Source: a virus (Duplodnaviria > Caudoviricetes). From it: a stretch of DNA of 25,979 nt. The notes under the pieces were generated by a model that saw only the letters and a program-made list of their open reading frames with translations, made no database searches and was not told the origin of the DNA. The stretch spans positions 1 through 25,979 of IMG/VR virus record IMGVR_UViG_3300027751_000058; one strand, given 5' to 3'. Made by a program: the position numbers and the translations under genes. Positions 620 through 22,458 of this stretch are shown here, piece by piece (positions within the stretch are counted from its first letter, which is position 1; each line of letters opens with the position of its first letter).

Positions 620-894
620 TATCTAGATCTTTTTTCAGCAAATCCACTAAAAGCCTTTTTTTCTATTTCCTCTTTTGGTTTATTCTCTAAAAGATTCTCC
701 TCGTCTTGAATTCTATTTAATATCTCAAAAGCATCGAATATTGCTAGCTTTTTTGTTGCTGCTGCGTTTTTTAATCTGTCTGCAGATATATCGTCATCTG
801 AATCGACAATAGCTTCTTTTGCTACTTTAATTAATTCTTCAACTGCTTTGTGCCCAGCTAGGATTATATTCTTCTTCGTTTCCTTGATATTCAT
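619..894 (-). CDS. Probable terminase small subunit (helical, 91 aa)
   Basis: Small helical protein whose stop overlaps the terL start (TAATG). Function inferred from position. Confidence 0.5.
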   Translation of the reverse strand: MNIKETKKNIILAGHKAVEELIKVAKEAIVDSDDDISADRLKNAAATKKLAIFDAFEILNRIQDEENLLENKPKEEIEKKAFSGFAEKRSR

Positions 895-1438
895 ATTTGA
901 TTGTAATTAAATTTGTAGGAACACGATATAATTTTTCTTCATCTATTAAAAATTCATATTCAGCTCCTGGCTTAAAGCCTACTAAGTCTCCTTTGGTCAT
1001 AACTTTTAGACTAGCATCTTTATATTTAAGTATGCCCATTAGCGGCCTTTCAAAATCTATAGAAAACATTCTACTCTCCTTTATAGGTTTAATAAAGTTA
1101 AAACCTTTTAAAGGCACCCATTCTCCGTCTTCTTTATAAGCGAAAATCTGATCAACAGCAACAAAGAACATATCATCTTTATAATAACTCTTGCTGTTTT
1201 TTTCAACCCCACGTATGTCTCTGAATCTTCTAAAAACATTATGGTGCAATATTACCTCATCACCAACCTTAACACTAGTATCATTTACGCTGGGGACAGC
1301 TAAGACTATGCCAATACGAGATACAAAATTGTGGTTTTGCATTTCTGTATTTAATATAAGTTCGCTATCGCCTAAGGTCTTTGTATTGTTATATCTTTCG
1401 CTTTTTGGTTTTACAACAAACTCAAAAATCCCTTTCAT
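839..1438 (-). CDS. GroES-like (co-chaperonin fold) phage protein, 199 aa
   Basis: GroES-like segments GIVLAVP...VKVGDEVIL and KGDLVGF...EYEFLIDEEKLY; about twice GroES length. Confidence 0.55.
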   Translation of the reverse strand: MKGIFEFVVKPKSERYNNTKTLGDSELILNTEMQNHNFVSRIGIVLAVPSVNDTSVKVGDEVILHHNVFRRFRDIRGVEKNSKSYYKDDMFFVAVDQIFAYKEDGEWVPLKGFNFIKPIKESRMFSIDFERPLMGILKYKDASLKVMTKGDLVGFKPGAEYEFLIDEEKLYRVPTNLITIKYEYQGNEEEYNPSWAQSS

Positions 1439-1656
1439 TAATAGTCTATATTATATTCTATAGCTATTGCCATATTCTTATTAAAATCTTTCCACGGTAT
1501 AATGTCGTTACCCTTTTGTATATAGATAGAGTACTTTTCTTCTTCCTCTATAATGTTAACTATAGTATGACCACCATACACTCCCTGTCCAACAGCGTAG
1601 TGCATGGCGTCATTTTTATAGTCCCTTCCAATACTAATCTTCCGTAGTAGACTCAT
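1438..1656 (-). CDS. Conserved phage hypothetical protein, 72 aa
   Basis: ORF tightly coupled to both neighbours in the late operon. Confidence 0.75.
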   Translation of the reverse strand: MSLLRKISIGRDYKNDAMHYAVGQGVYGGHTIVNIIEEEEKYSIYIQKGNDIIPWKDFNKNMAIAIEYNIDY

Positions 1657-1894
1657 TGGATTTTATTTCCCCTGTTTGAATGTCTACAGATACATTACCG
1701 TATTTATCCTCCAGGGTCTTTTGGAATTCATTTAATTTGTTTTTGATGTTTACTAGCTCATGCAAATAGTCGTGCTTTTGAGCCTCTAATCCACCAATTT
1801 GTAATTGTGTTTGGTTCATAACTTTAACAAGCTCTTGCAAGTTAGATAATTCACCACTTTCAACCTTCGATACTAATTCTTTTACTTTACTCAT
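1634..1894 (-). CDS. Coiled-coil hypothetical protein, 86 aa
   Basis: Heptad-rich helix ending LEDKYGNVSVDIQTGEI; AT-rich leader (AATTAAATTAAATCAAATG). Confidence 0.75.
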   Translation of the reverse strand: MSKVKELVSKVESGELSNLQELVKVMNQTQLQIGGLEAQKHDYLHELVNIKNKLNEFQKTLEDKYGNVSVDIQTGEIKSNESTTED

Positions 1895-1904
1895 TTGATT
1901 TAAT

Positions 1905-2309
1905 TTAATTGTTTTTATTGTTTATTATCGATTTTCCTTTTTCCCACGTCCTACCGACAAAGTACGCTCCGTAAACTGTAACAAGAAGAGTTTGGAATAT
2001 TGGGATATACTCTTCTGCTATTTTAAATTCTCCAACGTTTCCATCAAAGAACGCACAAACAGTAAATATAAACGTTAAGTATATAAGTACCATTGGGCGT
2101 ATATTTTTCGATAAAAAAGAATCGGATTGCATATCTGCATTCCACCTGGCAGTAACCTGCTCCTGAGCTTCTTTATCTGCTTTTTCTAATATTTCAGTAA
2201 TTAATCTTTGTGCCTCAAGCTTTTCTTCCTTGGTTGTTGTTAAGTTATCTAAGATACCGCCAATTTCTTTTATGACAGAACCTGTAAGCCATGACCAAAT
2301 TTTTTTCAT
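1905..2309 (-). CDS. Putative holin (3TM-holin-like)
   Basis: RWNADMQSDSFLSKNIRP followed by two hydrophobic helices and AYFVGRTWEK, a pattern typical of this family. Confidence 0.7.
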   Translation of the reverse strand: MKKIWSWLTGSVIKEIGGILDNLTTTKEEKLEAQRLITEILEKADKEAQEQVTARWNADMQSDSFLSKNIRPMVLIYLTFIFTVCAFFDGNVGEFKIAEEYIPIFQTLLVTVYGAYFVGRTWEKGKSIINNKNN

Positions 2310-2449
2310 TACTTATAAGGAAATAATTTATTTAACTTCTCTTTTCTTTTATTGCAACCGCAGCCGCCAGGGATTTTATCGGCTAACTTTTTTATTCCAG
2401 TTGCTGTTGTAAATTTCTCTATAGTATCCCCTAATCCTTTTATCTCCAT
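2309..2449 (-). CDS. Small phage protein, 46 aa (GLGDTIEK...CGC..RK..LN)
   Basis: Not in the track. MEIKGLGDTIEKFTTATGIKKLADKIPGGCGCNKRKEKLNKLFPYK fills the gap exactly, with TAATG overlaps on both sides. Confidence 0.8.
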   Translation of the reverse strand: MEIKGLGDTIEKFTTATGIKKLADKIPGGCGCNKRKEKLNKLFPYK

Positions 2450-2745
2450 TAGCAATTCCATTTTCTTAACGCTAAAGCCTTTCTTGTTGGCTCTCCGTTT
2501 GGTTTCTTCATTGGACCCTTCACTCCGCTCATTCTAGCGCAAAATGATTTTCTACGATTAGCAGCTTTACTGCCCTTCTTTAATTTAGAAGGATCAGTTG
2601 TAACGGCTGTCTTTAATTTAGAACCTGGATTTTCTCTCCTGTAAGCATCAACGCCTTTTTGGTTGAGCCCGCCTGTTTCCGACTGACCTTCTTTTCTGGC
2701 CCAGGCCCCGCTTTTTTTAAACGGGGAGTTTTGAACATAAGCCAT
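2449..2745 (-). CDS. Basic conserved phage protein (AW.RKEG...GGLN.KG...RRKSFCARM type)
   Basis: Recognisable motif set common in aquatic phages; function unknown. Confidence 0.75.
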   Translation of the reverse strand: MAYVQNSPFKKSGAWARKEGQSETGGLNQKGVDAYRRENPGSKLKTAVTTDPSKLKKGSKAANRRKSFCARMSGVKGPMKKPNGEPTRKALALRKWNC

Positions 2746-2748
2746 AGT

Positions 2749-3666
2749 TTACTTTTTAAATGATTTCATAATTGGACTCTTAGGCATCATCTTGTACGGG
2801 CTACGCTTCATTTTAGCGTTGCTTAAAATTTCCGTTTGTTTGTCGCCTCCAGCTGGTCCGATATCACTTAAACGAGCATCTCTTTCTCCTAAGTTTATTT
2901 TATTACCATATCGAACAGATTGCTCTTGCTGTTTTACAGACGCGTTTTGGCTCCCTTGTGCTCCTTTTAATTGTCCTCCATAAGCTTTTATTCTGTTTTC
3001 TGTTCTGGATAGTGATCTAGCGTCGTTACCAATACCTAAGAAGCCTTTTGATTTAACTTTAGATTTTTCCTTATTATCTAATTCACCATTCTTATCAGTG
3101 TCATACTTTGCTACCAGTTTGTTCTTTTTTCTATTGAGCTTATCAATTTTATCTTGGGTTTTTATAACACCTCTTGTAGACAACTTAGTGCTTCGCATAT
3201 CCTGGCGTCTGTGCCAAGGCTTCTTAGCATCCCCTGAAAGTGCCGTTTTGTATTCACCAAAACTAGATACTGTTGATGTTTTTCCAGGAGTATAAGTATC
3301 AGGCGCAAACGTTCCTGTCCCAACCTGCTTAGTGTTTTTCTCTAAATATGCTTTTCCTTTAGGCGTTTTTAAGAACGCATTCCAATCTTTGTCAGAAGCG
3401 TATCCGCCAGAACCGTCATAAGTATCTGTGTTAACGGTTTTCATTATTTCTTTACCCTTTACAAGTTTATCCGGCTCTACTCTAGTTGAAGTGTTTCTCA
3501 CTCCGACTTTGCCATCTTCCATTCCTCTAACAGACTCGTTTACTTCTTTGGCTTTGTTTTCTAGTTTAACTTTCTGCTTAACAGGTGAGCCCATGTTTAA
3601 TAATGGCTGGCGTACCATACCTTTATCAGTGGCGTGTTGTACTCTTGATGTGATTGGTTTATTCAT
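2749..3666 (-). CDS. Lys-rich hypothetical protein, probable virion/internal protein, 305 aa
   Basis: Long ORF in the late operon; low-complexity basic sequence with several SPxK-like motifs. Confidence 0.7.
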   Translation of the reverse strand: MNKPITSRVQHATDKGMVRQPLLNMGSPVKQKVKLENKAKEVNESVRGMEDGKVGVRNTSTRVEPDKLVKGKEIMKTVNTDTYDGSGGYASDKDWNAFLKTPKGKAYLEKNTKQVGTGTFAPDTYTPGKTSTVSSFGEYKTALSGDAKKPWHRRQDMRSTKLSTRGVIKTQDKIDKLNRKKNKLVAKYDTDKNGELDNKEKSKVKSKGFLGIGNDARSLSRTENRIKAYGGQLKGAQGSQNASVKQQEQSVRYGNKINLGERDARLSDIGPAGGDKQTEILSNAKMKRSPYKMMPKSPIMKSFKK

Positions 3667-3681
3667 TTTGTTAGTTTTTTT

Positions 3682-3990
3682 TTAAAATCCGGATAGGTTT
3701 TTTATTCCTGTTGACATGTCAGGAACACTTATGCTAAAATCTTTTGTAGCTAAATCTTCCCTCATTTTTTTAAATTCTTTTTTATAGTCCACTTTTGTAG
3801 GCTCTGGAGTTGCTTTTTTTTCTGGGGCAACTTCTTGCTGCTTAGCTTTATCTTTGTCTAATGCACTACTAACCATTCCTCCAATTGAATCTTCGAATTT
3901 ATCGTGAACAACAGAATTGCCTTCTATTAAAGCCATATTCATCTTCATAGGAGAGCTTTTGCATTTTTGTGTAATAGGCGTTGCTTTCAT
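3682..3990 (-). CDS. Hypothetical protein, 102 aa
   Basis: In-operon ORF; N-terminus (PITQK...SPMKM) resembles that of 2749..3666. Confidence 0.7.
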   Translation of the reverse strand: MKATPITQKCKSSPMKMNMALIEGNSVVHDKFEDSIGGMVSSALDKDKAKQQEVAPEKKATPEPTKVDYKKEFKKMREDLATKDFSISVPDMSTGIKNLSGF

Positions 3991-3994
3991 TTAT

Positions 3995-4369
3995 TTATTT
4001 TTTATAAGCTTCTTTTTCCCACTCAAAATCAGAATGGCCTTCTTCTAGTTTTTGCCCAGCGCTAAACAACGCTCCGCCGACTCTTTCATATTTTCTCGCT
4101 GGCGATCTCGTGTCTCTTTTCCAAATAACCTCTTCGTTATTGTATTGCAGCCTGTTTTGCATCATTTGATCGTGATGTACGTTCTCATGCTCGATAGCGT
4201 CTTTCTTTTCTTTTACCGATGCGTTTTTATCTACGAAAGTAGTCCCATCTCTGTTTGCTTCAGCTATGACATCTTTGCCTAGGTTTTTTTCAAACACCGG
4301 TCTACCAAACTCAGATAGCTCTTCGTTGATGCCAAATACTTCTCCTTTAGACTTTAGTTTAAATGCCAT
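3995..4369 (-). CDS. Putative HExxH zinc metallopeptidase-like protein
   Basis: AIEHENVHHDQM and a downstream WEKEAY glutamate. Confidence 0.55.
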   Translation of the reverse strand: MAFKLKSKGEVFGINEELSEFGRPVFEKNLGKDVIAEANRDGTTFVDKNASVKEKKDAIEHENVHHDQMMQNRLQYNNEEVIWKRDTRSPARKYERVGGALFSAGQKLEEGHSDFEWEKEAYKK

Positions 4370-4521
4370 TATTCTTTTTTGCCGCCCATTAACTTTCCAG
4401 CTAATGCTCCTGCAGCGCCTTTAATTAATGCCGGTGCCACTGCTCCAGCTATTGCTCCTAATATTTTAGCTGGTGTTTTTACTGCGCCAAGTTTGTTTGG
4501 CCCTATTCCTTTTGGTCCCAT
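4369..4521 (-). CDS. Small Gly/Ala-rich protein, 50 aa
   Basis: Not in the track. MGPKGIGPNKLGAVKTPAKILGAIAGAVAPALIKGAAGALAGKLMGGKKE fills the gap; its stop overlaps the next start. Confidence 0.75.
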   Translation of the reverse strand: MGPKGIGPNKLGAVKTPAKILGAIAGAVAPALIKGAAGALAGKLMGGKKE

Positions 4522-4522
4522 A

Positions 4523-4963
4523 TTATCTTTCTTTATCGTTTATCATATCGTCAATAGCTTTGTTAAAAACTTTATCAGTATATGTTTTGTTTTTATAAAA
4601 CGCACTTCTTTCAGATGTTGGTAAATCTTCTTCTGCCAACATTATTCTGTATATTCTTTTAATAAGTAGTTTACACTTGCTTGACGTTTTATATGCAGCG
4701 TATTTTGAAGTTGTTCTATTACGTTCTTTAAATACATCAATCCAACCTTCTCTACGCAACCGCTCCCATCTGTTTTTATCCCAGCTATATGTGTACACGC
4801 CATTAATAAAATCATTACGTGTAAAAAGCTTTTTGCAATCTAAGTATATCAACAACTCAAGATCAGCGTCTTTCAAATTATAAGTCTTACAGGCCCACCT
4901 TCTGATAAGCCTGTAATACTTTAATAGGTTCATGGTTTGGAGGTCTTTGGGACTTAGTCTCAT
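4523..4963 (-). CDS. Conserved phage hypothetical protein, possibly winged-helix DNA-binding
   Basis: Basic 146-aa ORF; ADLELLIYL...WERLRREGWI pattern is compatible with a wHTH fold (inference). Confidence 0.65.
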   Translation of the reverse strand: MRLSPKDLQTMNLLKYYRLIRRWACKTYNLKDADLELLIYLDCKKLFTRNDFINGVYTYSWDKNRWERLRREGWIDVFKERNRTTSKYAAYKTSSKCKLLIKRIYRIMLAEEDLPTSERSAFYKNKTYTDKVFNKAIDDMINDKER

Positions 4964-5220
4964 TCTATAAGTACTATATCTGTTATTTTTAGTACATAAT
5001 ATAAATTATCGTTCCATTCGATCCCGTGTCCTGCATGCTTGTCGTACCTAATTATATCATCTTTTGATACAAGCTCACTAACTTGATCCCCAACACTAAT
5101 TACTTTACCTTTTATGTAACGTACGTCTTTATTTTGCTTTTCAGTAAGTTCAAGGCCGCCTACTTTCTTCGGTGCCTCTTTTATTTTATCAACTATAACG
5201 AAATGATTTATTGCTTTCAT
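4960..5220 (-). CDS. groES: Co-chaperonin GroES
   Basis: Mobile-loop-like KKVGGLEL, GKVISVG, terminal DIVLI; adjacent to groEL. Confidence 0.85.
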   Translation of the reverse strand: MKAINHFVIVDKIKEAPKKVGGLELTEKQNKDVRYIKGKVISVGDQVSELVSKDDIIRYDKHAGHGIEWNDNLYYVLKITDIVLIE

Positions 5221-6773
5221 TATGCTAATCTTTTATTACTAATTACACAATCAGCTGAAATTATTGTTGTAACAACACTAACAGCGTTTTTTAACGCAGA
5301 CTTTGTAACTAATACCGGGTCTATTATTCCTGCTGAAATCATATTAACCTCTTTTCCAGTGTTAACATCAATACCTCTATTTTTAGCTTTAGCATACGTG
5401 ATAGGTATGCCTGCGTTATCTAAGATAGTATGGTATGGAGCTTTTATTGCTTCTAGTAAAGCTTCTTCCCCTTTGTTAGCAGGTTTTATTTTGTTTGCAG
5501 CATTTAATAGCGTTACACCGCCTCCTGCTACAATACCTTCTTTATAAGCTGCTTTTGTCGCATATATGGCATCTTCAACTCTGTCTTTCTTTTCTTTAAG
5601 CTCTACCTTTGAATCTGCTCCTACATAAACTATTCCGACTTGACCGGTTAGCATCGACAATCTTTGCTCTAGTTTCTTTTTAAAGAATGGATTAGTTTCT
5701 TCGTTTATTTGCTTTTCAACTTCCATTATTCTTAAAGCAACATCTTCTGTGGCTTCTTGTACTTGCAGAACAGTGTTTTTATCGTCTGTAACAGCTTTAA
5801 ACGCCTTCCCTAATACATTAGGGTCTATTAAGTCTAAATCGTCCCCTAACTCCTCGTTTATGATCTTTGCTCCTGTTAGCATTGCTAGATCTTCTAACGT
5901 TTGCTGTTTGGTTGGGCCAAATCCGGGTAGGTCAACAATGTTGACTTTAATATTACCTTTTACTTTATTAGCTAATAACGTAGCATAAGGCTGTTGTTCA
6001 ACATCGGCTACTATCAGTAAGCTACTCTTATTTTTAATAACAAATTCAAGAATGTTCTGTATTCTTCTTATATTTGGTATTGGTGAAGAAACAATAAGTA
6101 CATAAGGATCTTCTAAAACAGCTGTTCCTTTGTTTTTATCTGTTGCTAAGTGAGCGGATTTTAAACCGCTGTCAAATTGTACGCCATCAACAAACTCCAC
6201 GTAAGTTTCATTTGTATCAGACTCCTCCATTAATACGACGCCATTTTTTCCAACTTTTTCGTAAGCTTGTCCAATTTTGGTTCCAAGCTCTTCGTCGTTG
6301 TTGCAGCTAATAATAGCAACATTTTTAAGCATTTCGCCCTCAACCGGAGTACTGGACTTATCAAGATATATTTTAACTTTGTCAGCGCCACTAATAATGC
6401 CTGCTTTAAGTTCTCTAACTTTTTCTTCATCTAAGTATTTGTTTGCAATTTTTAATAATGAATCGGCTAATACGGTAGATGTTGTTGTTCCATCTCCTGC
6501 TTCTTTAACTGTGTTGCTAGCAGCTTCTTTTATTAAGGTTGCTCCTATGTTTTCAACCGGATGTAATAAGACTACGCTTTCCGCAACGGTTACTCCGTCT
6601 TTTGTTATCACCGGTCTACCTAGGGCATCTTCGTATATTACGCATTTACCTGAAGCACCTAATGTGCTTTTAACTGCGCTTGCTAATTTTTCAACACCCT
6701 GTATTATTTGTTTTTTAGCGTCATCGCCAAATGTGAGCGTTTTTACTATTTCGCTCGGATTATTAAATTCCAT
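5220..6773 (-). CDS. groEL: Chaperonin GroEL
   Basis: ITKDGVTVA, AGDGTTT, PGFG, EKKDRVEDA, GIVAGGG and GIIDP motifs; no GGM tail. Confidence 0.97.
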   Translation of the reverse strand: MEFNNPSEIVKTLTFGDDAKKQIIQGVEKLASAVKSTLGASGKCVIYEDALGRPVITKDGVTVAESVVLLHPVENIGATLIKEAASNTVKEAGDGTTTSTVLADSLLKIANKYLDEEKVRELKAGIISGADKVKIYLDKSSTPVEGEMLKNVAIISCNNDEELGTKIGQAYEKVGKNGVVLMEESDTNETYVEFVDGVQFDSGLKSAHLATDKNKGTAVLEDPYVLIVSSPIPNIRRIQNILEFVIKNKSSLLIVADVEQQPYATLLANKVKGNIKVNIVDLPGFGPTKQQTLEDLAMLTGAKIINEELGDDLDLIDPNVLGKAFKAVTDDKNTVLQVQEATEDVALRIMEVEKQINEETNPFFKKKLEQRLSMLTGQVGIVYVGADSKVELKEKKDRVEDAIYATKAAYKEGIVAGGGVTLLNAANKIKPANKGEEALLEAIKAPYHTILDNAGIPITYAKAKNRGIDVNTGKEVNMISAGIIDPVLVTKSALKNAVSVVTTIISADCVISNKRLA

Positions 6774-19120: not shown

Positions 19121-19371
19121 TGACAATGAAAGAAGCGTGTGAGTACGTTAAAACCTCCCGAATAGCGAATGCTAGAAAACATAGAATAGAAGTAACACAA
19201 GGTGATCTATGTAGCGGTTTAACGGAGAAAGAATATTTCCGTCTTAGAGTTAGAGCTAAGGGAGCTGGAAGTAAAGGTAGAAAGTATTCTCACACCAAAC
19301 TATGGAGTGACCAAAACTTATCTAATCGCATTCACACCTTCTATCATGGTAAATGGGATTTACAAAAGTAA
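19117..19371 (+). CDS. Small basic protein, 84 aa
   Basis: ORF track; its stop lies within motif copy 6. Confidence 0.75.
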   Translation: MMTMKEACEYVKTSRIANARKHRIEVTQGDLCSGLTEKEYFRLRVRAKGAGSKGRKYSHTKLWSDQNLSNRIHTFYHGKWDLQK

Positions 19372-19394
19372 TACGACCTAATAACGATAATATA
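19361..19394 (+). promoter_or_regulatory. Conserved 34-bp motif copy 6
   Basis: TACAAAAGTAATACGACCTAATAACGATAATATA. Confidence 0.8.
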
Positions 19395-20608: not shown

Positions 20609-21017
20609 AGTAGTATATGTAGATATGGACGGCGTGTTAGTTGACCTACAAACCGAAATCGAAAGATGTGGTGGGTGGCATCAGGATATATTCAAAAACC
20701 CTGAACCTATAGAAGATGCAATTGAAGCGTTTAAAGAGCTTTGTCAAAAAGACGAGCTTGACGTCTATATCTTATCTACTGCTCCGTGGAATATGCCGCG
20801 ATCATGGTCACATAAACGATTATGGGTAAGCAAACACCTAGGTCCCTGTGCACATAAGCGGTTGATATTGTCTAACCATAAAAACTTACTACGTGGCGAT
20901 ATATTGATCGACGATAGAACAGCTAACGGTGCAGGTGAGTTTGACGGTGAGTTAATACAGTTCGGTACAGATAAATTTCCTAACTGGAAAGTGGTATTAA
21001 AACATTTACAAATATAA
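20598..21017 (+). CDS. 5'(3')-deoxyribonucleotidase (NT5C-type HAD hydrolase)
   Basis: YVDMDGVLVD, ILSTAPW, K..W...HLG and GDILIDD motifs. Confidence 0.9.
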   Translation: MKNRVVYVDMDGVLVDLQTEIERCGGWHQDIFKNPEPIEDAIEAFKELCQKDELDVYILSTAPWNMPRSWSHKRLWVSKHLGPCAHKRLILSNHKNLLRGDILIDDRTANGAGEFDGELIQFGTDKFPNWKVVLKHLQI

Positions 21018-21040
21018 TACGATCAACTTTCGATAATATA
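21007..21040 (+). promoter_or_regulatory. Conserved 34-bp motif copy 7
   Basis: TACAAATATAATACGATCAACTTTCGATAATATA. Confidence 0.8.
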
Positions 21041-21067
21041 TATGTAACAAATAAAAAATAAAAGATT

Positions 21068-21256
21068 ATGTATTGTAGATGCGGAGATGAAGTTCATCCA
21101 ATTAGGATAGGGTATGGGTATAAAACGTGTGTTCCATGTAGCACCGTTCAAGATTACAGTTATGTACCAATAATAGAGCATAAAACCGGCAATACAATAC
21201 AAATAGTTAGTCAAGAACTAAGTGCTTTAGTGCACAAATCTTGGCGAAGACGCTAG
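21068..21256 (+). CDS. C4 zinc-finger protein, TraR/DksA-finger-like, 62 aa
   Basis: CRCG.EV...R...GYKTCVPC resembles the DksA/TraR finger; the coiled-coil DxxD tip is absent. Confidence 0.65.
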   Translation: MYCRCGDEVHPIRIGYGYKTCVPCSTVQDYSYVPIIEHKTGNTIQIVSQELSALVHKSWRRR

Positions 21257-21353
21257 ACGAGTAGCTTAATTAGGTTCATTGAAGGTTTGGGATAGACGTT
21301 TCACGAAATCTCCTATAGAATAAAACTATGAACACATAAGTGAATTGCTAGCG
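21251..21353 (+). ncRNA. Array RNA 1: long irregular hairpin
   Basis: CGCTAG/CTAGCG (or TAGC/GCTA), AATT/AATT, GTTCAT/ATGAAC, GTTT/AAAC, GGGAT/ATCTC, apex CGT-TTC-ACG. Confidence 0.55.
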
Positions 21354-21455
21354 GCGACTAGGTATGGTGTAGTACTGAAATATGTAAACGTTTTCACGAG
21401 CATATAATGACTACGACTACTGACGAGTATGAGGTTCGATTCCTCACTAGTTACA
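21354..21455 (+). ncRNA. Array RNA 2: tRNA-like RNA (acceptor stem and T-arm) with one long arm replacing the D and anticodon arms
   Basis: T-arm TGAGG-TTCGATT-CCTCA (21430-46); GCGACTAG/CTAGTTAC acceptor-like stem with one mismatch; inner GTAGT/ACTAC, ATATGT/GCATAT, CGT-TTTC-ACG. Confidence 0.7.
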
Positions 21456-21457
21456 AA

Positions 21458-21544
21458 TGTGCAGCGAATAAATAACAAACCTGCGAATCGGTTAGAGTGT
21501 AACTAATTTAGGTTACCGAAAAGCGGTTAGGAAATGACTGCACA
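21458..21544 (+). ncRNA. Array RNA 3: rod with a central A-rich bubble
   Basis: Perfect TGTGCAG/CTGCACA closing stem; unpaired CGAATAAATAACA opposite AGGAAATGA; AACC(T)GC/GCGGTT, TCGG/CCGA, TAAC/GTTA. Confidence 0.55.
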
Positions 21545-21547
21545 CAC

Positions 21548-21628
21548 GGGGGTGACCTGGTATTGACGTGATAGAAAGCCTATATGGAACTATTACGGAA
21601 GAGAGTTCGAATCTCTCCACCTCCACTA
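21548..21628 (+). ncRNA. Array RNA 4: mini-tmRNA (tRNA-like domain only)
   Basis: GGGGGTG/CACCTCC acceptor with G3:U70 and discriminator A (21625); stemless D-loop ACCTGGTATTGAC; helix GTGATAG/CTATTAC; T-arm GAGAG-TTCGAAT-CTCTC; no tag ORF. Confidence 0.85.
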
Positions 21629-21629
21629 A

Positions 21630-21696
21630 TTAACAGTAGGTACCAAGCCTGGAAAAGAAGGGTGCAGCGTTACCGAGTCGCAATGCCTGCTGTTAA
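21630..21696 (+). ncRNA. Array RNA 5: 13-bp closing stem with a branched interior
   Basis: TTAACAGTAGGTA/TGCCTGCTGTTAA (2 G:U pairs); inner CCT/AGG and GCG/CGC hairpins. Confidence 0.55.
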
Positions 21697-21702
21697 AAAA
21701 TT

Positions 21703-21736
21703 TACAAATTGAATACGAACAAAAATCGATAATATA
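21703..21736 (+). promoter_or_regulatory. Conserved 34-bp motif copy 8
   Basis: TACAAATTGAATACGAACAAAAATCGATAATATA. Confidence 0.8.
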
Positions 21737-21752
21737 ATAAACAATAACAATT

Positions 21753-22004
21753 ATGAGTAGACTAACAATTTATGAAAGGCTAAAGCCAGAAATCAAAGAG
21801 GCATTGCATTCGCCTCAAAACGACAAATACCAAGCAAGTGTTGACTCTATAGTCAAAGCGCTTTCAAGCACTACATTTTATAGTGACTTAAAAATTAGCG
21901 ACGTTAGCTCGTTATATACATTTTCTAATCTTGAAATTGTTAGAGTTTCAGCTTGGGATTTTAAATACGGCGATAACATTTTAATATCTAAAGACTATGA
22001 GTAA
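21753..22004 (+). CDS. Hypothetical protein, 83 aa
   Basis: ORF track; follows motif copy 8. Confidence 0.8.
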   Translation: MSRLTIYERLKPEIKEALHSPQNDKYQASVDSIVKALSSTTFYSDLKISDVSSLYTFSNLEIVRVSAWDFKYGDNILISKDYE

Positions 22005-22458
22005 AATACTAACTGACGAATTGATTGAAAAAAGACTACGTAAAATTAACGTGCTTGAAAGAGAAGACTTAGACCACGACTATATGCTTAAAACTATAAC
22101 TAATCACTTTGATTTTAAGATAACTAGCGACTGGCCATATCAACCTGATATGATGTTTTATACCGAAACAACTGCTGATGGCTATGAAGTATGGATTGCA
22201 ACCAACAATGATCGCAACCCAAGTGTTAATGAAGACATATACTATTACGATAACGACTGGCTAGAAAAAATGCCTGACGCTATGATTGATGGCGCTAGTA
22301 TATACTACGATCAACTTGACGATGAAGACTATAATTTTCAAGAGGTTGTTGAAGAAGTATACGATCACTATTACAATGATAAGAAAAAAGAAATTGAAAA
22401 CGAACTAATTGAAGAAGGTTATGAGTACGAAACAGAAGACGAAACAGTCGGTGCCTAA
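21997..22458 (+). CDS. Highly acidic, Tyr-rich protein, 153 aa
   Basis: ORF track; extremely D/E-rich C-terminal half. Confidence 0.8.
   Translation: MSKILTDELIEKRLRKINVLEREDLDHDYMLKTITNHFDFKITSDWPYQPDMMFYTETTADGYEVWIATNNDRNPSVNEDIYYYDNDWLEKMPDAMIDGASIYYDQLDDEDYNFQEVVEEVYDHYYNDKKKEIENELIEEGYEYETEDETVGA

Follow-up and report, generated by a model that had tools for sequence, protein, structure and literature searches.

What a phage gains from a 446-nt gene-free stretch packed with RNA-like folds is the question raised by the locus at 21251-21696 of the window, by which we mean the whole 25,979-nt stretch of DNA analysed here, taken from a viral record that is 41% complete. We approached it by folding the stretch unit by unit, by comparing each unit with known RNA families and with related phage loci, and by weighing what the resulting array of RNAs may do. 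The features are collected in Table 1.

Table 1. Coordinates of the array, its units and the neighbouring elements in the window
Feature	Position	Strand	Description
Promoter-like 37-nt repeat	21004-21040	+	Upstream of ORF62; holds AATACGA ... CGATAATATA
ORF62, 62-aa Cys-rich (CxC...CxxC) protein	21068-21256	+	Conserved; precedes the array in relatives
Five-unit RNA array	21251-21696	+	Back-to-back stem-closed folds in a gene-free stretch
Unit 1, stem-closed carrier S1	21251-21353	+	Frame 21252-21273 and 21334-21352
Unit 1, exchangeable inner hairpin	21274-21333	+	
Unit 2, tRNA-like carrier S2	21354-21455	+	No anticodon arm; GG-containing linker
Unit 2, acceptor-type stem	21356-21361 with 21447-21452	+	
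Unit 2, inner hairpin	about 21367-21415	+	
Unit 2, small hairpin	21418-21429	+	UACU-GACG-AGUA
Unit 2, T-arm	21430-21446	+	UGAGG-UUCGAUU-CCUCA
Unit 3, stem-closed carrier S3	21458-21544	+	Closing stem 21458-21464 with 21538-21544
Unit 4, tag-less mini-tmRNA, tRNA-like domain only	21548-21628	+	81 nt; Rfam and covariation
Unit 4, acceptor	21548-21554 with 21618-21624	+	GGGGGUG/CACCUCC, includes G3:U70
Unit 4, helix P2	21567-21574 with 21590-21597	+	Capped by 15 nt
Unit 4, T-arm	21601-21617	+	GAGAG-UUCGAAU-CUCUC
Unit 4, A73	21625	+	
Unit 5, 12-bp stem-closed hairpin module	21630-21696	+	Last in array; rare
Promoter-like repeat, next copy	21700-21736	+	Heads ORF83 (21753-22004)

Five folds behind a small Cys-rich gene

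Folding of the window units gave each of the five its own closing stem, with spacers of 0-3 nt between the folds. Measured against 200 shuffles each, the folding z values were −2.42, −0.45, −1.80, −2.77 and −2.18 for units 1 to 5, so that the stability of unit 2 taken alone is not above chance. The + strand folded better than the − strand in all five units and in 34 of 36 members of the family of unit 1 (S1), a preference that arises via G.U pairs. The view that the stretch encodes structured RNAs rather than proteins agrees with its coding content, as the sole + strand ORF in 21257-21752 is 42 aa long and no ORFs lie between units.

The unit borders are independently supported, because deletion and replacement variants that occur naturally in DNA metagenomes have their breakpoints there. 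A variant that joins 21352 to 21546, and so lacks units 2 and 3, co-exists in three of the DNA runs; in two runs, 21631 is joined to 21700, with exactly 21632-21699 missing and unit 5 absent; and a joint from 21275 to 21332 marks replacement of the inner hairpin of unit 1. Contigs from RNA libraries branch at 21252, 21260, 21273-6, 21332, 21348/52, 21540 and 21548, and the variant joints of unit 1 from DNA and RNA together fall at 21252, 21275/21332 and 21352. Folding and DNA variant joints thus agree with the initial annotation, which had five self-closed folds tiling 21251-21696. Covariation, a check it had proposed, was seen in unit 4, in unit 2 and in the closing stems of units 1 and 3, whereas unit 5 shows one G.U to A-U change only, among near-identical copies.

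The proposed Rfam and ARAGORN searches set one unit apart. Against 4227 Rfam covariance models with E up to 10, units 1, 2, 3 and 5 match no family and return only T-loop fragments of 9.9-16.7 bits (9.9 bits for unit 2), unit 4 is matched as a tmRNA, and neither unit 2 nor unit 4 matches the canonical tRNA model RF00005; over the window, ARAGORN calls neither tRNA nor tmRNA and finds no tag peptide. The suggestion that the units are mimics of host RNAs is consequently unsupported beyond unit 4. The array is nevertheless not a mere collection of known families or decayed pseudogenes, since one unit in five can be assigned to a known family, and conservation is seen in the remaining four.

The gene that precedes the array, ORF62, has its stop codon inside the closing stem of unit 1. 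Its 39 distinct versions are all 62 aa long, with 460, 363 and 1108 substitutions at the three codon positions, and its 187 homologous clusters include none that is named. No Pfam, PHROG or PDB fold match was obtained for it (PDB at E <= 0.001), and its structure model has a pLDDT of 77.8. Among named Atlas clusters, zf-dskA_traR comes closest at 0.88, which is no more than a lead. The 37-nt repeat that lies upstream of the gene occurs three times in the window (19358, 21004 and 21700) against 0 expected from 100 shuffles, and its motif also stands downstream of relatives' arrays. It would act as a promoter, and the copy at 21700 would close the transcription unit of ORF62 and the array.

Unit 4, a tmRNA reduced to its tRNA-like domain

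Unit 4 aligns with the Rfam tmRNA model RF00023 end to end (model positions 1-374) at 64.9 bits and an E value of 2e-23, above the gathering cut-off of 47 bits, with 304 model positions replaced by 11 nt and the whole mRNA-like part missing. By Rfam alignment and ARAGORN, the resume codon, tag reading frame and stop of an mRNA-like domain are absent, as are pseudoknots PK1-PK4, and a 15-nt loop that contains a 2-bp mini-hairpin caps helix 2. What the RF00023 alignment shows to be kept is the T-arm, the D-loop GG without a D-stem and the GAC...GGA at the base of helix 2; the 3' end reads CUA in place of CCA. The sequence bears out the earlier description of units 2 and 4, both of which have a T-arm and an acceptor-type stem but lack an anticodon arm.

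These features are shared by a family of 42 viral loci and 30 distinct sequences, in which 96.5% of positions are paired and both partners vary in 12 of 20 pairs, a level that none of 500 shuffles reached. G3:U70 and A73 occur in all 30 distinct members, CGGA is conserved and G50 G51 A52 is invariant in the family alignment A1, none of which had been demanded by the search pattern. Unit 4 scores 92.9 bits with the family's own model R1, 19 of 20 related loci exceed the RF00023 cut-off, and an Rfam scan of 20 + 5 related loci found only tRNA and tmRNA. The tag-less tmRNA thus forms a family that shows covariation and is spread over dozens of uncultured marine phages, and unit 4 is not new in kind: it is a tmRNA consisting of the tRNA-like domain only (TLD only), a kind known from Mycobacterium phage DS6A. 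The initial annotation did not recognise the arrangement as a described system; it is not wholly undescribed, given this unit, and the other four have no Rfam family.

Outside these phages, a TLD-only pattern run over genomes of 185,579 species gave 22 matches, of which five were true; the other 17 cellular matches were rejected as chance occurrences in GC-rich DNA. Maribacter phage Panino gave the only match in the GenBank phage collection, 51 nt within a tmRNA that is of the permuted two-piece type and whose annotation runs over two tRNAs. Five related records, four of them at least 90% complete, yielded no phage smpB, so any SmpB partner would be the host's.

Carriers and exchangeable hairpins in related phages

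Units 1 and 3 both combine a conserved frame with a variable interior. The 21-nt 5' frame of unit 1 recurs exactly in 47 viral loci, and in the 23-36 distinct members of S1 the frame is near-invariant, the inner hairpins are unrelated and the outer pair covaries (G-C, A-U, U-A). In unit 3 the frame CAGCGAAUAAAUAAC ... AUGACUG is conserved around an exchangeable interior; its family (S3) has 15 distinct members with a covarying closing stem (GUGCAG/CUGCAC, CCCAG/CUGGG, UCCAG/CUGGA), and the unit itself is 99% identical in L039/L125 and 86-87% identical in five loci.

Unit 2 has all the elements that define the S2 family, namely the AACUAG/CUAGUU stem, GG linker, UACN-GACG-N'GUA hairpin, T-arm of 5-6 bp and UUCGAUU loop (row 1 of alignment A2). 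Its 3' pattern was found in 89 viral loci, and an alignment of 75 distinct members has 92.5% of its cells paired and 7 of 18 pairs changing on both sides, which 0 of 500 shuffles equalled. The small hairpin and the T-arm covary (pair 96-106 is CG in 35 members and UA in 31); the search pattern itself dictated the 3' stem strand, whose invariance is therefore no evidence. An insert of 0-67 nt occupies the place of the anticodon arm. The outer two acceptor positions are mostly unpaired in the family (55/75 and 29/75), so the S2 acceptor is not a standard 7-bp one. A hammerhead ribozyme, considered on account of the CUGACGA in unit 2, was discarded, as there is no GAAA core after the hairpin and no Rfam match; about half of the family members have C at U4 of that motif. 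A reading of units 2 and 4 as attP fragments was likewise dropped, both acceptor strands being present and covarying.

Unit 5 is found in copies of 97% identity in four other contigs (L053/L182, L098/L193, L195 and L202), always directly after a tmRNA-like unit. It is not a classical terminator, because no U-tract lies 3' of it. A pattern scan for it gave 23 loci with 19 distinct sequences, of which the true homologue is one distinct variant, that of the four contigs; the remaining matches were rejected as chance occurrences in coding DNA.

Across the relatives, 118 distinct inner hairpins on seven carrier types fall into 56 clusters, seven of which occur on two or three carrier types. Particular hairpins are 88-100% identical on different carriers in diverged phages, with covarying stems, and the array frames are more conserved than the adjacent protein genes. 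Modules are gained, lost and reordered independently, and the 28 anchored arrays have 28 architectures, a count that overstates the diversity of complete arrays, since the patterns were hand-made (one missed the window's own unit 2) and 600-nt flanks cut loci short. The array frames act as carriers for exchangeable hairpins, an arrangement that is new here. Selfish dispersed palindromes were ruled out, as the modules are confined to one locus per genome in four complete relatives.

The same comparison bears on how the modules might be separated. Alternation of tRNA-like punctuation with other units, as first described, holds in this phage and does not extend to relatives, in which several non-tRNA-like modules often adjoin one another, so that RNase P/Z alone cannot separate all modules. 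In L012 and L007, true tRNAs that end in the same A-CUA stand 0-3 nt 3' of the mini-tmRNA, and tRNA-type cutting is required there. The phages concerned are marine and GroEL-bearing, with their best protein matches among Cellulophaga and Flavobacterium phages; no cultured close relative was found in the GenBank phage collection.

Expression, function and comparison with known systems

The depth of RNA-library contigs is 800-5700 across 21088-21575, compared with 2-15 in the flanking gene, and contigs running from ORF62 to unit 3 have 100-400 times the depth of the neighbouring gene, although contig depth is one figure per assembled contig and a poor measure of expression. The high depth was seen in three of the four RNA runs first examined (X19, X20 and X22, from three studies), the fourth, X21, giving 0.5-5.6 throughout. 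DNA runs show 13-37 over 21088-21392 against 13-21 in the flanks, with no excess of the RNA type; the conserved frames are 6-20 times over-represented in DNA runs too. Some RNA contigs bridge unit borders (one record spans units 2-3), and a single adapter-marked fragment end lies at 21450, 4-5 nt short of the predicted 3' end of unit 2. RNA-contig cover is absent over 21576-21697 in five RNA runs, which says nothing either way.

We give an even chance to a reading in which the locus holds five stem-closed modules, likely excised by tRNA enzymes, with a mini-tmRNA that is predicted to be an alanine-charged competitor for SmpB. The promoter-like repeat at 21004 would drive one early transcript with ORF62 and the array. 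As two units are tRNA-like, RNase P and 3' tRNA trimming form the natural excision route, and the host enzymes would cut at 21353/54, about 21455, 21547/48 and about 21625, presumably followed by CCA addition. Unit 4 would be alanylated and bound by SmpB, and would compete with host tmRNA for it, blunting the tagging of stalled proteins. On this analysis unit 4 likely interferes with host rescue and tagging of stalled proteins, and for an RNA of the DS6A type, inhibition of the endogenous tmRNA has been reported in E. coli, with SmpB titration as a possible mechanism (PMC4131195, PMC11915505). The exchangeable hairpins would do the actual work, most probably by binding host or phage proteins or serving as decoys for them, and the tRNA-like and stem-closed carriers may supply them with processing and stability. 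Large inserts are found in the tmRNA-like carriers (56-134 nt) of relatives, 2 of 15 of which have A3-U70; this fits a carrier role better than that of a pure SmpB decoy.

The same unit could instead be a working tag-less rescuer that, with host SmpB, enters stalled ribosomes, accepts the nascent chain, frees the ribosome and leaves the protein unmarked for degradation, which would sustain translation when phage or defence nucleases cut mRNAs. We consider this fairly unlikely. The ribosome-entry features G3:U70, A73, T-arm, D-loop GG and GAC...GGA are all retained; however, in trans-translation it is the resume codon that provides the template on which to continue or terminate, and a ribosome entered by unit 4 would have none. 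By the account in PMC11915505, jakobid mitochondria have CDS-less tmRNAs that presumably still help with incomplete mRNAs, since SmpB co-occurs, whereas the only cited experiment on such an RNA reports tmRNA inhibition (PMC4131195, PMC11915505). The modules might also act in cis on the ORF62 mRNA and the early operon, with tRNA-like marks directing the cutting, 3' stems giving protection and the variable hairpins as neutral filler. ORF62 precedes the array in 39 of 39 distinct versions and has its stop within or beside the first closing stem, RNA contig depth over its 3' two-thirds equals that over the array, and L036/L038 carry ORF62 followed by the mini-tmRNA alone. Closely similar hairpins with covarying stems on different carriers are unlike neutral filler, though, and the strong conservation of the frames relative to neighbouring protein genes also argues against a cis role, which we therefore hold to be unlikely.

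It is very unlikely that the units are DNA recombination sites (attC-like) or decaying remnants of a tRNA cluster with no RNA function. Conserved ends, a variable middle and gain or loss of whole modules do resemble cassette sites, and true tRNAs are kept at the same place in relatives, but the units are not separated by ORF cassettes, contigs from RNA libraries have very high depth and the + strand is favoured through G.U pairs. Pseudogenes would moreover lose the tRNA and tmRNA identity features that covary in 30 and 75 distinct sequences, and Pfam finds no recombinase among 20 ORFs scanned in the window, which is only 41% of the genome. A single large ornate RNA of the GOLLD or ROOL kind, made up of all 446 nt, is extremely unlikely: the folds are contiguous and some RNA contigs bridge them, yet each unit is self-closing, modules come and go independently and no Rfam large-RNA family is matched.

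Free recombination of carriers and hairpins, together with high conservation, points to the hairpins as selected, transferable working parts, and the partners of these phage small RNAs are thus testable by pull-downs with a few 40-60-nt hairpins. We tentatively extend this to a natural "RNA display" in a widespread group of marine phages, a possible though doubtful scheme in which a few carrier folds, two of them tmRNA- or tRNA-like and excised by host tRNA enzymes and several others stem-closed, would present shuffled short hairpins, very highly expressed early in infection, that would bind or decoy host proteins and be swapped among carriers and phages under an arms race. If the mini-tmRNA blocks or rewires ribosome rescue, trans-translation would join the host processes targeted by phage RNA alone. 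Phage non-coding RNAs are poorly known, and the tag-less tmRNA is noted in print for a single phage.

That phage is DS6A, whose CDS-less "TLD only" tmRNA appears in Hudson, Lau and Williams 2014 (PMC4131195) and in the 2025 tmRNA database paper (PMC11915505). Unit 4 and the DS6A RNA both come from phage genes for little more than a tRNA-like domain, and that of DS6A is proposed there to inhibit host tmRNA, perhaps via SmpB titration (PMC4131195, PMC11915505). The present gene, compared with it by description, belongs to another phage group, forms a 42-contig family and ends a variable RNA array. The CDS-less tmRNAs of jakobid mitochondria and Mallomonadaceae plastids, described as about 65 nt long, lacking a tag frame and presumably working together with SmpB (PMC11915505), are similar. 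They differ in being organellar, vertically inherited and outside phages and RNA arrays.

RNAC and RNAD of phage T4 are released by tRNA processing enzymes. Like the present units, and likened to them by description, they are phage small non-tRNA RNAs beside tRNA-type genes, and their "biological roles are unknown" in the account of these small RNAs from the tRNA region (PMC3014915). T4, however, has eight true tRNAs and two fixed RNAs, whereas the window has no true tRNAs and no anticodons, and its carriers and hairpins are shuffled. Some Y RNAs are phage-encoded. In the bacterial Y RNA YrlA, a tRNA-like domain that includes a T-arm is described as attached to a closing stem (PMC4201824), but the units give no Rfam Y-RNA match at E up to 10 and no Ro60 gene was seen in the window. 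The array is not described among the five lead examples given for the csRNA catalogue of IMG/VR (PMC10690425), although one of that catalogue's 10,006 candidates may include its modules.

The closest parallel in design is man-made, and literature searches found no natural counterpart with exchangeable inserts. In engineered tRNA scaffolds, a foreign hairpin takes the place of the anticodon arm, and the tRNA body gives it processing and stability; the unit-2 and T2 families resemble this design. Such scaffolds serve recombinant RNA expression (PMC3753655). If true, RNA display would be their natural counterpart and would parallel, at the RNA level, the gene islands of anti-defence.

Folding, borders and library depth of the array

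All five units that the initial annotation had described as self-closed folds do fold with a closing stem of their own, with z-scores against shuffles of -2.42, -0.45, -1.80, -2.77 and -2.18 for units 1 to 5, and folding of the + strand was better than that of the - strand in every unit (5/5). The borders proposed there were backed by variant joints in DNA metagenome runs and RNA-library contigs. Specifically, units 2 and 3 were dropped by a variant joining 21352 to 21546 (three DNA metagenome runs) and unit 5 by one joining 21631 to 21700 (two DNA metagenome runs), the unit-1 interior was swapped between 21275 and 21332 in DNA metagenome variants, and branch points of the RNA-library contigs coincided with the DNA-variant joints.

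Contig depth, a crude measure from contigs that carry no information on RNA ends or strand, reached about 800-5700 over 21088-21575 in the marine RNA libraries X19, X20 and X22 (three studies), against 2-15 over the flanking nucleotidase gene. Library X21 gave 0.5-5.6 throughout, and cover in the fifth RNA run, X24, was confined to 22064-22368. In three DNA runs, flank depth was 13-21 and the stretch 21088-21392 had 13-37, with a 6-20 fold increase only over frames common to many strains.

RNA-library depth over the 3' two-thirds of ORF62 (from about 21104) was as high as over the array. ORF62 is a real gene, with 39 distinct 62-aa versions and substitutions mostly at the third codon position; family and fold searches gave no match for it, and no plausible genes were found between it and ORF83 (21753-22004). 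A variant without ORF62, in which the promoter region joins unit 1 directly (window 21047-21253), occurred in DNA and RNA contigs. The 37-nt repeat, whose AATACGA core we take to resemble T7-type promoters, has three copies in the window against 0 expected: two bracket the ORF62-array unit and the third lies at 19358. Successive small early genes are each headed by this repeat, which is also present after relatives' arrays.

Features of the array, its surroundings and a related carrier family
Feature	Position	Strand	Description
Unit 1	21251-21353	+	RNA fold
Unit 2	21354-21455	+	RNA fold
Unit 3	21458-21544	+	RNA fold
Unit 4	21548-21628	+	RNA fold, mini-tmRNA
Unit 5	21630-21696	+	RNA fold
ORF62	21068-21256		62-aa protein, conserved, with a CxC...CxxC pattern; directly precedes the RNA array in every case
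37-nt promoter-like repeat	19358-19394, 21004-21040, 21700-21736		ATTTACAAA..AATACGA....CGATAATATA
Second tmRNA/tRNA-Ala-like family	L053 351-479, L098 221-327, 13 more loci	- (L053, L098)	56-134 nt
GroEL-type chaperonin, phage-encoded	5220-6773	-	Cpn60_TCP1 match (E 3e-49)
Leftward arm			structural and lysis genes, GroEL-type chaperonin
Rightward arm			small early genes, among them 5'-nucleotidase, GP88, DNA ligase, pyrimidine-dimer glycosylase

Unit 4, a tmRNA reduced to its tRNA-like domain

Units 2 and 4 had both been presented as tRNA-like parts of an unrecognized arrangement. For unit 4 this novelty did not hold: on the + strand it matches Rfam tmRNA (64.9 bits, cut-off 47, aligned from first to last model position), the sole family above threshold in the window, while unit 2 matched neither an Rfam family nor R1, our own model of the tmRNA domain. 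In unit 4, an 11-nt stretch replaces 304 tmRNA model positions (mRNA-like domain and pseudoknots). Its retained features are an acceptor stem of 7 bp that includes G3:U70, the A73 residue, the GG of the D-loop, the T-arm and the GAC...GGA base of helix 2; the 3' end is CUA, not CCA. Unit 4 is a further example of the already known tmRNA with a tRNA-like domain only (TLD-only).

In an alignment of 30 distinct sequences, including the window's, 96.5% of cells were paired and 12 of 20 pairs changed on both sides, a result reached by 0/500 shuffles, and sliding the partners lowered pairing to 44-52%. The G:U at acceptor pair 3 was conserved in 30/30 sequences, and 19 of 20 related loci scored above the Rfam tmRNA cut-off. 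The short TLD-only pattern matched 42 viral contigs; its 22 matches in cellular genomes included just 5 true ones, mostly on small MAG contigs. A search of five related phage records, with completeness of 90% or more in four, found no smpB. Separately, the annotated tmRNA of Maribacter phage Panino (L044, record 27557-27889) overlaps two annotated tRNAs and, with its 3' acceptor/T-arm half preceding the 5' half, is a permuted two-piece tmRNA within a tRNA cluster.

Carrier frames and exchangeable hairpins

The 3' end of unit 2 (T-arm and CUAGUUAC) was present in 89 viral contigs. Alignment of 75 distinct members (L084, L090 and L120 were left out for want of a recognizable 5' strand, and L129, which looked unrelated, was dropped) gave a frame of NNNAACUAG, a GG-containing linker and a 0-67 nt insert, followed by a hairpin UACN-GACG-N'GUA, a 5-6 bp T-arm with a UUCGAUU loop and CUAGUUAC; the minimal form, without insert, is 57 nt. 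The hairpin and T-arm covary (7/18 pairs change on both sides, equalled by 0/500 shuffles; one pair is CG in 35 and UA in 31), and the stem has six invariant pairs, their 3' strand preset by the search pattern, with two outer positions mostly unpaired. The array of L067 holds two unit-2-type carriers with different inserts (601-621 and 784-805, - strand). ACGUUU(U)CACGA is common to two inner hairpins of the window, lying at 21392-21400 in that of unit 2 and at 21296-21306 in that of unit 1, and a longer form, GUAAACGUUUUCACGAGC, caps the insert in many unit-2 relatives; neither was recognized as a known motif.

The 21-nt 5' frame of unit 1 has exact copies in 47 viral contigs; in this family the frame is near-invariant, the outermost pair covaries and the interior hairpin differs each time, and AGUA/GAA within the frame may be read as a loop-E-like motif. 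Unit 3 likewise has a conserved frame, with a covarying closing stem in three forms. Unit 5, the least supported of the five, has 97% identical copies in four other contigs, each directly after a tmRNA-like unit, with G.U to A-U as the sole stem change.

Searching 74 unit-2 loci with R1 revealed 21 further tmRNA-domain-like units of 56-134 nt. They make up a second carrier family, GGGCGUG...CACGUCC-ACUA, which bears large inserts at the helix-2 position and G3:U70 in 13 of 15 members examined (A3-U70 in the other two); one member scored 36.2 bits against Rfam tmRNA, under the cut-off. Across seven carrier types, 118 distinct inner hairpins formed 56 clusters, 7 of which span two or three types. 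A 43-nt hairpin is common to unit-3-type and unit-2-type carriers (91-95% identity), and the window's unit-1 hairpin recurs on a different carrier in both L091 and L109 (96% over 48 nt). Inner hairpins were self-closing in 28/32 unit-1-type and 39/48 unit-2-type carriers. Relatives' arrays contain additional module types, and ORF62 followed by the mini-tmRNA alone was also found; module order differed in 28/28 ORF62-anchored arrays, a count from hand-made patterns and some loci cut short that overstates the diversity of complete arrays. Dispersed selfish repeats were ruled out because all module matches in four complete relatives were confined to one locus.

Host, proposed processing and known phage RNAs

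The window, an entire IMG/VR virus record of 25,979 bases, is an estimated 41% complete. Its host is likely to be among marine Flavobacteriia, since Cellulophaga phages (phi38:1, phi40:1 and Calle), Flavobacterium phages and other phages have chaperonins that share about 40% identity with its own; no cultured phage was found sharing the RNA-array locus.

We propose that a single early transcript would start from the repeat at 21004 and be cut at both tRNA-like units by RNase P together with an enzyme that trims tRNA 3' ends, which would release unit 3 exactly. Such cutting is required in those relatives in which a true tRNA abuts the mini-tmRNA. Of two unlikely rival readings, one takes the array as one large RNA, against which speak the self-closed folds and the separate loss of units at the variant joints. 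The other takes the units as decayed tRNA genes or as sites of DNA recombination; gain and loss of whole units would fit recombination sites, and the paired changes in units 2 and 4 speak against this reading.

The mini-tmRNA, CCA-added and alanylated, would vie for host SmpB, a competition suggested by the precedent of mycobacteriophage DS6A, and the remaining modules would display conserved hairpins to putative partners. Less probably, the mini-tmRNA may be a tag-less rescuer, or the modules may be purely cis-acting processing and stability signals; the hairpins shared across carriers speak against the latter.

Literature searches yielded no account of phage carriers, whether tRNA-like or stem-closed, on which hairpins are exchanged, and the csRNA catalogue, available in part, may hold such motifs unnamed (PMC10690425). 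DS6A bears a "TLD only" tmRNA, of the same kind as unit 4 in lacking the mRNA-like domain; in E. coli, tmRNA is reported to be inhibited by a molecule of this type, perhaps via SmpB titration (PMC4131195), an account restated in a 2025 database paper, which lists CDS-less tmRNA forms for jakobid mitochondria and two plastids (PMC11915505). RNAC and RNAD, of unknown role according to PMC3014915, lie in the tRNA region of phage T4, which the array resembles.
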